DNA of 64,000 nt, from the NCBI RefSeq assembly GCF_054482595.1, contig NZ_CM137008.1; one strand, 5' to 3'. Numbering within the stretch: position 1 is the stretch's first letter; each line of letters begins with the position of its first letter. Both the position numbers and the translations under genes were made by a program. The notes under the pieces are model-generated. The model had not been told where the DNA came from and did no database searches. It saw only the letters and a list, made by a program, of their open reading frames with translations. Shown here in pieces: positions 19,686-27,068 of the stretch.

Positions 19686-20621
19686 ATGTCGCAAAATCAA
19701 GAAATTAGCAAGAAAGAACAATACAACCTGAACAAATTACAAAAACGCCTGCGTCGTAACGTGGGCGAAGCCATTGCTGACTTCAATATGATTGAAGAAG
19801 GCGATCGCATCATGGTTTGCCTCTCCGGGGGTAAAGACAGCTATACCATGCTGGAGATTCTGCGCAATTTGCAGCAAAGCGCGCCAATCAATTTTTCGCT
19901 GGTGGCTGTTAACCTCGATCAAAAGCAACCGGGCTTCCCGGAACACGTTCTGCCCGAGTATCTTGAAAAGCTGGGCGTTGAGTACAAGATTGTTGAAGAG
20001 AACACTTACGGTATCGTGAAAGAGAAGATTCCAGAGGGCAAAACCACTTGCTCACTGTGTTCTCGGCTACGTCGCGGTATCCTTTATCGCACCGCAACGG
20101 AACTGGGGGCGACGAAGATCGCGTTGGGCCACCATCGTGACGATATCCTGCAAACGTTGTTCTTAAATATGTTCTACGGCGGCAAGATGAAAGGTATGCC
20201 TCCGAAACTGATGAGCGATGATGGCAAACATATTGTTATTCGTCCGCTGGCCTACTGCCGCGAGAAAGATATTCAGCGATTTGCCGATGCAAAAGCGTTC
20301 CCGATTATTCCGTGCAACCTGTGCGGTTCACAGCCTAACCTGCAACGTCAGGTGATTGCTGACATGTTGCGTGACTGGGATAAACGTTATCCAGGGCGTA
20401 TCGAGACGATGTTCAGCGCGATGCAGAATGTGGTGCCGTCACATCTGTGCGATACCAACCTGTTCGATTTCAAAGGCATCACCCACGGTTCTGAAGTGGT
20501 TAACGGGGGTGATCTGGCGTTTGATCGCGAAGAGATCCCACTACAACCGGCGGGCTGGCAGCCAGAAGAAGATGAAAATCAGTTGGATGAGTTACGGCTG
20601 AATGTGGTTGAAGTGAAATAA
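19686..20621 (+). CDS. ttcA: tRNA 2-thiocytidine(32) synthetase
   Basis: 311 aa; PP-loop SGGKDS; CxxC cysteine pairs. Confidence 0.95.
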
Positions 20622-22383: not shown

Positions 22384-22505
22384 AAAAAAAAGCCGACTCA
22401 TCAAAGTCGGCGTCGTACGAATCAATTGTGCTATGCAGTAATTCAAAAAAGGAAGTAAGACAATATGGAGCGCAACGCCCATCGCTTGACGTTGCATTCA
22501 CCTGC
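22384..22505 (-). ncRNA. fnrS: FnrS small RNA (FNR-activated)
   Basis: Reverse complement reads GCAGGTGAATGCAACGTCAAGCGATGGGCGTTGCGCTCCATATTGTC...GAGTCGGCTTTTTTTT, matching recalled FnrS incl. terminator; located between zntB and dbpA as in K-12. Confidence 0.85.
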
Positions 22506-25091: not shown

Positions 25092-25655
25092 TCAACGACT
25101 GCGCTTAGCGTGGCGCTCCCAGTTTTCTTGCTTCGCCTGCGCCGTTTTACGTAGTGCGACGTAACACGCCCCGCTGCCGCCATGATGCGGTAGCGCGGTG
25201 CAATATGCCTGAACATCATCAAATTCGGTCAGCCAGCGCGCCACATAGCTGCGGACAATATTGGCATGCGATTTATCATCCCGCCCTTTACCATGAATAA
25301 TCAGCACGTTACGCAAACCATCCGCCAGGGCTTGTTGAATAAAACTGAACACCATTTTGCGGCACTCTTCCACCGGCTGGCGCAAAAGATTCAGGCTCGC
25401 CTGTTGCGGATATTTACCACTGCGCAGCTTATCCAGCACCCCATGTTGCAACCCTTCCCGCCGAAACTCCAGCGGCTGACTTAGTGGGATAATGTCGAGA
25501 AATCCGGTAGTGAGGAAATTATCAAGCTGCAGCGTGTCGATACGCTGTGGCGCACGTTGGTTACGCGTGGGATGCCAGTGGACATCGGTAGCACGTTTCA
25601 GCGGCTGGACATCTTCCATGGCGTCAAGAAACAGCGATTTGTCGTCAAGGTTCAT
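25092..25655 (-). CDS. smrA: Smr-domain DNA endonuclease
   Basis: 187 aa; C-terminal Smr domain; synteny. Confidence 0.85.
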   Translation of the reverse strand: MNLDDKSLFLDAMEDVQPLKRATDVHWHPTRNQRAPQRIDTLQLDNFLTTGFLDIIPLSQPLEFRREGLQHGVLDKLRSGKYPQQASLNLLRQPVEECRKMVFSFIQQALADGLRNVLIIHGKGRDDKSHANIVRSYVARWLTEFDDVQAYCTALPHHGGSGACYVALRKTAQAKQENWERHAKRSR

Positions 25656-25882
25656 GTTACATCCTCCCGCAATTAAGAGCGCGATATGATAACCAGACCG
25701 GGTCGGTCCAACAACGTATTACCCAAAATTCCAGTAATAAGTTCCAAATGTTGCCGATATTTTAAGCAAAATGCTTATGCATGATTATTCATTCACGATA
25801 TTAATAATGTAACTTATATTTTCGTGAAATCTGTCACTGAAGAAAATTGGCAACTAAAGGTTAAAACCGTTATAACACAGTC

Positions 25883-25977
25883 ACCGGCGCAGAGGAGACA
25901 ATGCCGGATTTAAGACGCGGATGCACTGCTGTGTGTACTATAGAGTCTGGCGGATGTCGACAGACTCTATTTTTTTA
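25883..25977 (+). ncRNA. mcaS: McaS (IsrA) small RNA
   Basis: ACCGGCGCAGAGGAGACAATGCCGGATTTAAGACGCGGATGCACTGCTGTGTGTACT...CGACAGACTCTATTTTTTT matches recalled McaS; between smrA and abgR as in K-12. Confidence 0.8.
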
Positions 25978-25984
25978 TGCAGTT

Positions 25985-26893
25985 TTAACTTTGCAGATAG
26001 CCGCATTCTCGCCGGAATTGCGTGATTAATGACGCGGTCAGTGGTGTCTGGCGACTATCACGCCGCTGAATCAAATAATAGGCCGCTTTCGGTAAAATTT
26101 CGCTAACCGGCAACATCACCAGCCCCTGTCCGTGCAAGGGATCGCAGCCCATTTCTTCAGGCAGTATGCTGAGAAAATCGCTTTTTGCCACCAGACTGAT
26201 ACAGGCTGAGAACGTCTCGCAGACTACACCGACCTGTGGCGTTTGCGCCTGATCGTCAAGCAATTCACTCAACTGTTTGTAGTAGCTGCCGTGTGGCGTC
26301 GGCATTGTCCAGCTGTAATCCAGTAACTGTTTGATCGAACGGGCACCAATGGCGGGGTGTCCCGGGCGGCAAAAGATCGCGAATTGCTTTTCCAGTAATT
26401 TCTCAAAAGTAAATTCGTGGTCGTACGATCCCTGATAATAGGTATTGATGGTGAAATCCAATTCTCCCTGACGCAATTCATTAATCATCGACACCAGTTG
26501 CCCTTCCATAATGCGTACTTTTACCTGCGGATGCTGCTGATGAAAACGAGATATGACAGCTGGCATCAGACTGCGGGAAATACTGGCCCCCATGCCGATA
26601 TTAATCTGCCCTGCCAGTTGCCCTTGTCGTTGGCGAATATCCTCTTGGGCTGCGCGCAGCTCTTCAAGAATAAGACTGGCGTGCTGATAAAAACTTTCAC
26701 CGGCATCAGTTAACGTCACGCCTTTACTACGGCGAAAAAAGAGTTGCGCCGCTAACCCTTCTTCCAGCTCCTGAATAGATTTACTCAGTGCCGGTTGCGA
26801 CATATTCAACATTCGGCTCGCTCCGCGAATGCTGCCCTGACGAGCCACTTCAACAAAAGCCCGAATTTGATGAATTTTTACCTGAAAAGCCAT
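25985..26893 (-). CDS. abgR: LysR-family regulator of abg operon
   Basis: 302 aa; N-terminal HTH (QGSIRGASRMLNMSQPALSKSIQELE); divergent from abgA. Confidence 0.9.
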   Translation of the reverse strand: MAFQVKIHQIRAFVEVARQGSIRGASRMLNMSQPALSKSIQELEEGLAAQLFFRRSKGVTLTDAGESFYQHASLILEELRAAQEDIRQRQGQLAGQINIGMGASISRSLMPAVISRFHQQHPQVKVRIMEGQLVSMINELRQGELDFTINTYYQGSYDHEFTFEKLLEKQFAIFCRPGHPAIGARSIKQLLDYSWTMPTPHGSYYKQLSELLDDQAQTPQVGVVCETFSACISLVAKSDFLSILPEEMGCDPLHGQGLVMLPVSEILPKAAYYLIQRRDSRQTPLTASLITQFRRECGYLQS

Positions 26894-27068
26894 GACGCCA
26901 CCGATAACCGTTATTTATCAGACCAAAGAAACTGGCATCTACTTTAATGCAGATGATTGTGTCAGGGTAATTTATGAACGGTTAAAACTGTGAAAAATCA
27001 GTTAGTGATAAGTAAAAACTATCGCTACGTGAACCGGGTCACACTTTTTACTGATGACGGGAAAGGTT

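Follow-up and report, generated by a model that had tools for sequence, protein, structure and literature searches.

McaS, characterised since 2012 as a regulator of curli, flagella and PGA synthesis, helps cells to switch between swimming and biofilm growth. In Escherichia coli K-12, it has been reported as a transcript of ~95 nt that depends on Hfq (PMC4824073, PMC6061853). The RNA is stabilised by Hfq and pairs with csgD mRNA and, with Hfq placed at an A/U-rich site, it directs the cleavage of this mRNA by RNase E, which results in less curli; a distal site in csgD, termed 'Binding Site 1', is the only one needed in vivo (PMC6061853). Stem 2 of McaS pairs with csgD mRNA and is required for binding to the RNA polymerase core, with which McaS associates through this stem (PMC4824073). 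PMC3634460 describes activation of flhDC translation through the opening of an inhibitory leader structure and, citing Thomason 2012, places McaS in the CRP regulon. According to PMC10729762, McaS binds CsrA via GGA motifs and relieves the repression of pgaA, and CsrA enhances the repression of csgD.

Two groups of small RNAs share individual properties with McaS. The CsrB and CsrC sponges resemble it in carrying GGA motifs, some of them in loops, that bind and titrate CsrA, whereas McaS has four such motifs against 22 in CsrB and, as a base-pairing and Hfq-dependent RNA, falls outside the CsrB and CsrC families (PMC10729762). RprA, GcvB, OmrA/B, RydC and RybB act on the same csgD 5' leader as McaS, and RprA and GcvB, like McaS, induce cleavage by RNase E (PMC6061853). 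The sequences, loci and input signals of these five regulators or regulator pairs are nevertheless unrelated to those of McaS.

The locus considered here lies at positions 25883-25977 on the plus strand of the window, the whole stretch of 64,000 nucleotides that was analysed. It is almost certainly the mcaS (isrA, b4426) gene of E. coli, which specifies a 95-nt Hfq-dependent small RNA, has its own promoter, runs divergently from smrA and stops at an intrinsic terminator, 8 nt short of the stop codon of abgR. The element and its surroundings read ACCGGCGCAGAGGAGACAAUGCCGGAUUUAAGACGCGGAUGCACUGCUGUGUGUACUAUAGAGUCUGGCGGAUGUCGACAGACUCUAUUUUUUUA. An Rfam cmscan of the entire window against all 4227 families at gathering thresholds gave three matches in total, one of which is McaS/IsrA (RF00115) at 25883-25978 on the plus strand, with 117.4 bits and an E-value of 3.3e-21. 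The match spans model positions 1-96 of 96 with a posterior probability of 1.00 throughout, and it stands ~75 bits above the gathering score of 42 bits for this family. The Infernal scan proposed as a check in the initial annotation, which had called a 95-nt plus-strand McaS (IsrA) element here, has therefore returned a full-length covariance-model match rather than none, and the call is also borne out by 94/95 identity to K-12 McaS and by the position of the gene at the same locus in MG1655.

In MG1655, the ncRNA mcaS (b4426, 'small regulatory RNA McaS', 94 nt) is annotated at 1405658-1405751, between abgR and smrA, in the same place and the same orientation relative to its neighbours as the window element (IsrA/IS061). 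A gap-free alignment of the intergenic region maps the K-12 feature to 25883-25976, with no insertions or deletions over 329 bp. The end points given by the initial annotation, by Rfam and by K-12 differ by one base either way, and all of them lie within the U-tail. The RefSeq/PGAP records that were checked list no feature at the McaS position; this is a matter of pipeline annotation and not of gene absence. The McaS call consequently fills a gap left by automated annotation in these records, and it illustrates that a known small RNA can be recognised from raw sequence alone with base-accurate coordinates. No evidence contradicts the identification.

The neighbouring genes agree with this placement. 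Upstream and divergent lies smrA, encoding the DNA endonuclease SmrA (25092-25655, minus strand, an ORF of 187 aa), and downstream and convergent lies abgR, encoding a LysR-family regulator (25985-26893, minus strand, 302 aa). Both ORFs carry these names in the annotation of other genomes: many complete E. coli chromosomes match the interval 25600-26100 at 100% identity and have its flanks annotated as smrA and abgR, and positions 10001-34000 align collinearly to E. coli XH990 (4 mismatches over 24 kb). The gap between the two genes, described initially as 330 bp, measures 329 bp (25656-25984), and the statement that the element ends just before the abgR stop also holds, the stop codon occupying 25985-25987 on the minus strand, 8 nt past position 25977. 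A divergent smrA adjoins McaS in 9 of 10 species-level loci, other genera included; the remaining one (L016) starts just 9 nt ahead of McaS and so has no upstream sequence. The downstream partner is less widely shared: abgR follows McaS in E. coli, and the sole match elsewhere, at one Citrobacter locus, is partial and 62% identical.

McaS-like sequence is present in 5367 of the 5426 complete E. coli genomes. A pattern search with one genome per species also recovered it in E. albertii, E. whittamii, two further Escherichia species, Citrobacter (three loci), Pseudescherichia vulneris and an Enterobacteriaceae MAG, where scores range from 74.7 to 108.6 bits, all above the Rfam threshold. Across these homologues, there is hardly any variation in nt 43-93 and a great deal in the 5' third; the apparent invariance is inflated by the search pattern, which fixed 24 bases within nt 44-79. 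The combination of an invariant 3' part and a variable 5' part has already been described (PMC4824073). Six McaS matches fall on records classed as plasmids, not chromosomes. At one further locus, in E. coli FDAARGOS_943 (L004, ~1551-1700), the sequence of the terminator hairpin is interrupted from about nt 71, the gene of an IS4-family transposase adjoins and the score is 63.3 bits; this strain probably represents a natural mcaS knock-out.

The predicted fold of the element follows the Rfam consensus. Its minimum free energy (MFE) is -30.4 kcal/mol against a shuffle mean of -23.05 (sd 2.9; z = -2.53), and all three consensus helices are recovered in the MFE structure. Stem-loop 1 (nt 2-25; 25884-25907) has a 12-nt loop and is found alike in the Rfam structure and the MFE fold, and it is a part of the RNA that varies among strains and species. 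The A/U-rich linker AUUUAAG (25908-25914), which separates stems 1 and 2 and is unpaired in both structures, is a putative Hfq contact. Stem-loop 2 (nt 33-52; 25915-25934) belongs to the Rfam structure and appears in the MFE fold, and it is absent from the centroid.

Stem-loop 3 (nt 58-88; 25940-25970) is the terminator hairpin, supported by the Rfam structure, the MFE fold and the sequence itself, and it consists of a 10-bp stem, a 2-bp inner stem and a 5-nt loop. It is followed by the U-tail of the intrinsic terminator, seven T residues at 25970-25976, so that the hairpin and T-run named in the initial annotation are both found at the end of the element. A simple terminator scan did not flag this hairpin, because, with the interruptions at G68 and A78, the 10-bp stem encloses an apparent 11-nt 'loop' and the scan accepts no more than 8 nt. 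Covariation on a set of 13 homologous sequences, gathered with a search pattern that fixed part of the 3' region, gave no measure above shuffles, since the 3' two-thirds hardly vary and the alignment of the 5' third is poor. The independent support that these data lend to the structure thus comes from thermodynamics and conservation only. When pairs are counted on the Rfam structure, 87.8% of cells are paired, compared with 32-44% when the partners are slid; helix 3 is 100% paired, with positions invariant or changed on one side, and helix 1 aligns poorly in distant species.

Upstream of the element, a putative sigma-70 promoter can be read from the plus-strand sequence (25847-25876), with a -35 hexamer TTGGCA (25847-25852), an 18-bp spacer and a -10 hexamer TATAAC (25871-25876) that ends 7 nt before the McaS 5' end. 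When the 120 nt that precede McaS are aligned across 11 loci, drawn from Escherichia, Citrobacter, Pseudescherichia and an unclassified Enterobacteriaceae MAG, the TGG of the -35 and the TA.AA of the -10 are invariant. A simple promoter consensus scan did not report this pair, because its rule demands a T at the last -10 position. The promoter-like site that the scan did report, at 25792-25820, would start transcription ~55 nt too far upstream, and the conserved -35/-10 pair is preferred.

An inverted repeat resembling a CRP site, cGTGA-N6-TCACt, lies at 25823-25838 on the plus strand, centred ~52.5 bp upstream of the McaS 5' end and with 2 mismatches to TGTGA-N6-TCACA. The Escherichia and Citrobacter loci retain this repeat, and in the Pseudescherichia group it is degenerate. 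Sites of such quality are not enriched in the window (27 observed, 28 expected from shuffles), so that a match in sequence is no evidence by itself. What makes 25823-25838 a likely CRP site is its conservation combined with the published membership of McaS in the CRP regulon. Elsewhere in the window, the best match to the CRP consensus is CGTGAACCGGGTCACA, with 1 mismatch, at 27028-27043 in the divergent abgR-abgA intergenic region, just upstream of abgA.

The sequence features associated with CsrA and csgD in the literature can be located in the window copy. McaS has been reported with four GGA copies, two of which bind CsrA, namely the 5'-most and one overlapping the csgD-binding site (PMC10729762, citing Jorgensen 2013). 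The same number is found here, at nt 12, 24, 37 and 70. The 5'-most motif (25894-25896) lies in the loop of stem-loop 1, the second (25906-25908) spans the 3' foot of stem 1, the third (25919-25921) is in stem-loop 2 and the fourth (25952-25954) is in stem-loop 3, all on the plus strand.

The segment UGCACUGCUGUGUGUA (nt 40-55; 25922-25937, plus strand) is a perfect Watson-Crick complement, 16 nt long, to the K-12 csgD leader. In a longest-exact-complement test, it covers leader positions -96 to -81 relative to the AUG, and 1000 shuffles of McaS against csgD gave a mean longest run of 6.6 and a maximum of 10, compared with 16 for the real sequence. This pairing fits the distal 'Binding Site 1' (PMC6061853). 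K-12 served as a proxy for both leaders, csgD and flhD, neither gene being in the window; of 5344 matching E. coli genomes, 4748 have a csgD leader with at least 99% identity to that of K-12, which makes the proxy reasonable. For flhD, the best match that involves the stem-3 loop is 7 nt, between the loop (nt 71-77; 25953-25959) and leader positions -61 to -55, a length within the range of shuffled controls. The flhD match is consistent with the literature and is not independent evidence. Van Nues et al. have noted that these pairing seeds are short and poorly supported phylogenetically (PMC4824073). Whole-length RNAduplex predictions of McaS against both leaders were over-extended and uninformative, and were replaced by the longest-exact-complement test with shuffles.

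Compared with K-12 McaS, the window copy has the same locus, length, three stem-loops, four GGA motifs, csgD segment and promoter core, and it differs by a single substitution, G to A at nt 58 (25940), with the A in the window. Together with U88, nucleotide 58 forms the first pair of the terminator stem; the G·U pair of K-12 becomes an A-U pair here, and the helix is kept. The ~100 bp before the 5' end are identical to K-12, and three substitutions lie farther upstream (>100 bp). G58A is rare, none of the 12 other aligned homologues having an A at this position. A decayed, non-functional copy in the window strain would account for the departure from K-12 and for the scarcity of the exact 95-nt allele, which occurs in 75 of the 5367 matching E. 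coli genomes, most of the others differing by one base; disrupted McaS also exists elsewhere, as in the IS4-family insertion in the FDAARGOS_943 terminator. Such decay is nevertheless extremely improbable, as the sole change improves a base pair, the Rfam score stays within 1 bit of K-12 (117.4 versus 118.4 bits), the promoter-proximal sequence is unaltered and neither the csgD-pairing segment nor any of the four GGA motifs has been damaged. The element is instead an already known and well-characterised small RNA gene in a minor, structure-preserving allele, and biologically nothing new.

Two further readings dispense with a regulatory RNA at this position. The hairpin lies 14 nt past the abgR stop codon, and abgR transcripts probably run into it, so the hairpin and T-run could be only the bidirectional terminator, or 3' end, of abgR, without an independent small RNA. 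On the minus strand, however, the hairpin is followed by AGUACACACA, without a U-tract, and an abgR terminator would leave unexplained the match to the covariance model over its full 96 positions, with two stem-loops upstream of the hairpin, as well as the correct spacing between a conserved promoter and the McaS 5' end. McaS is also retained in genomes whose abgR is absent or a pseudogene, E. coli Nissle (EcN) and most of the non-E. coli species among them, and K-12 carries a separately annotated ncRNA; the chance that abgR termination is the whole explanation is thus close to nil. It is just as implausible that the region encodes a small protein. The mechanical ORF list does contain plus-strand ORFs of 42 aa (25901-26029) and 34 aa (25921-26025), but both cross the terminator into abgR, and a 95-nt transcript would have no stop codon for either of them. 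Moreover, the ATG at nt 19-21 is not kept, being AGG in EcN, E. albertii and E. whittamii, and conservation peaks at the stem and loop positions of the RNA, with a codon-like pattern absent.

The identity of the window copy, its structure-compatible sequence, its motifs and csgD complementarity, its promoter and terminator anatomy and its conservation are observed directly. By near-identity to K-12, the copy would be expected to be expressed, to be controlled by CRP, to bind Hfq and CsrA and to have the corresponding regulatory outcomes, and the determinants predicted for the McaS activities are intact. Under nutrient limitation, cAMP-CRP would activate the mcaS promoter. Through its stem-2 region, the resulting RNA would pair with the distal csgD leader site and, jointly with Hfq, direct cleavage by RNase E, such that CsgD, the master regulator of curli and biofilm, would be repressed. 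The stem-3 loop may pair with the flhDC leader and thereby activate flagella, and the GGA motifs may titrate the global regulator CsrA, which would relieve the repression of pgaA and favour the PGA polysaccharide.

A second form of McaS is common within E. coli. In BLAST searches, ~1460 E. coli genomes align only from nt 21 (nt 21-95). A 5' truncation was considered for these genomes and rejected, as alignment and cmscan of Nissle 1917 show a full-length variant allele. The Nissle gene (L003, 1481-1576) scores 112.8 bits, and its stem-loop 1 reads ACCGGUCACCAGGACCCCAGGCCGG, in which the stem is kept by two-sided changes and the loop still carries a GGA; this allele is exact in 1037 genomes. 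Relative to the window copy, the B2-type allele, exemplified by Nissle 1917, is the same over nt 26-95 apart from 3 substitutions, and its promoter core matches from about -115 onwards. The two differ in stem-loop 1, where nt 6-21 read UCACCAGGACCCCAGG instead of the CGCAGAGGAGACAAUG of the window, again with two-sided changes that preserve the stem, and the B2-type also carries C36A in stem 2. The surroundings differ as well: in Nissle, an AraC-family gene takes the place of smrA upstream, abgR is a pseudogene fragment, and abgABT is missing, with ogt following directly.

The variability of stem 1 has already been published (PMC4824073). The K-12-type and B2-type alleles differ across the whole stem-1 loop, which holds the principal CsrA-binding GGA, and G58A is a rare change that would strengthen the terminator stem. 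On these sequence differences, a speculative and rather unlikely proposal is that such changes could shift the affinity for CsrA, the amount of RNA or the range of targets, in which case the control of biofilm formation and motility by McaS might differ by phylogroup.

The other two Rfam matches in the window are also small RNAs, both full length and both on the minus strand. FnrS (RF01796, 134.8 bits) lies at 22388-22505, between ynaL and zntB, and has no annotation in the PGAP record collinear with the window. MicC (RF00121, 125.3 bits) lies at 17457-17577, between nifJ (ydbK) and ompN. The two are only ~5 kb apart, and uspF and ttcA are adjacent (~19076-20621, by the XH990 annotation). On the K-12 map, the ~23-kb Rac prophage lies between uspF and ttcA. 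Because uspF and ttcA adjoin and MicC and FnrS are so closely spaced, the window strain appears to lack Rac at this site, on the basis of the XH990 annotation and the K-12 map.
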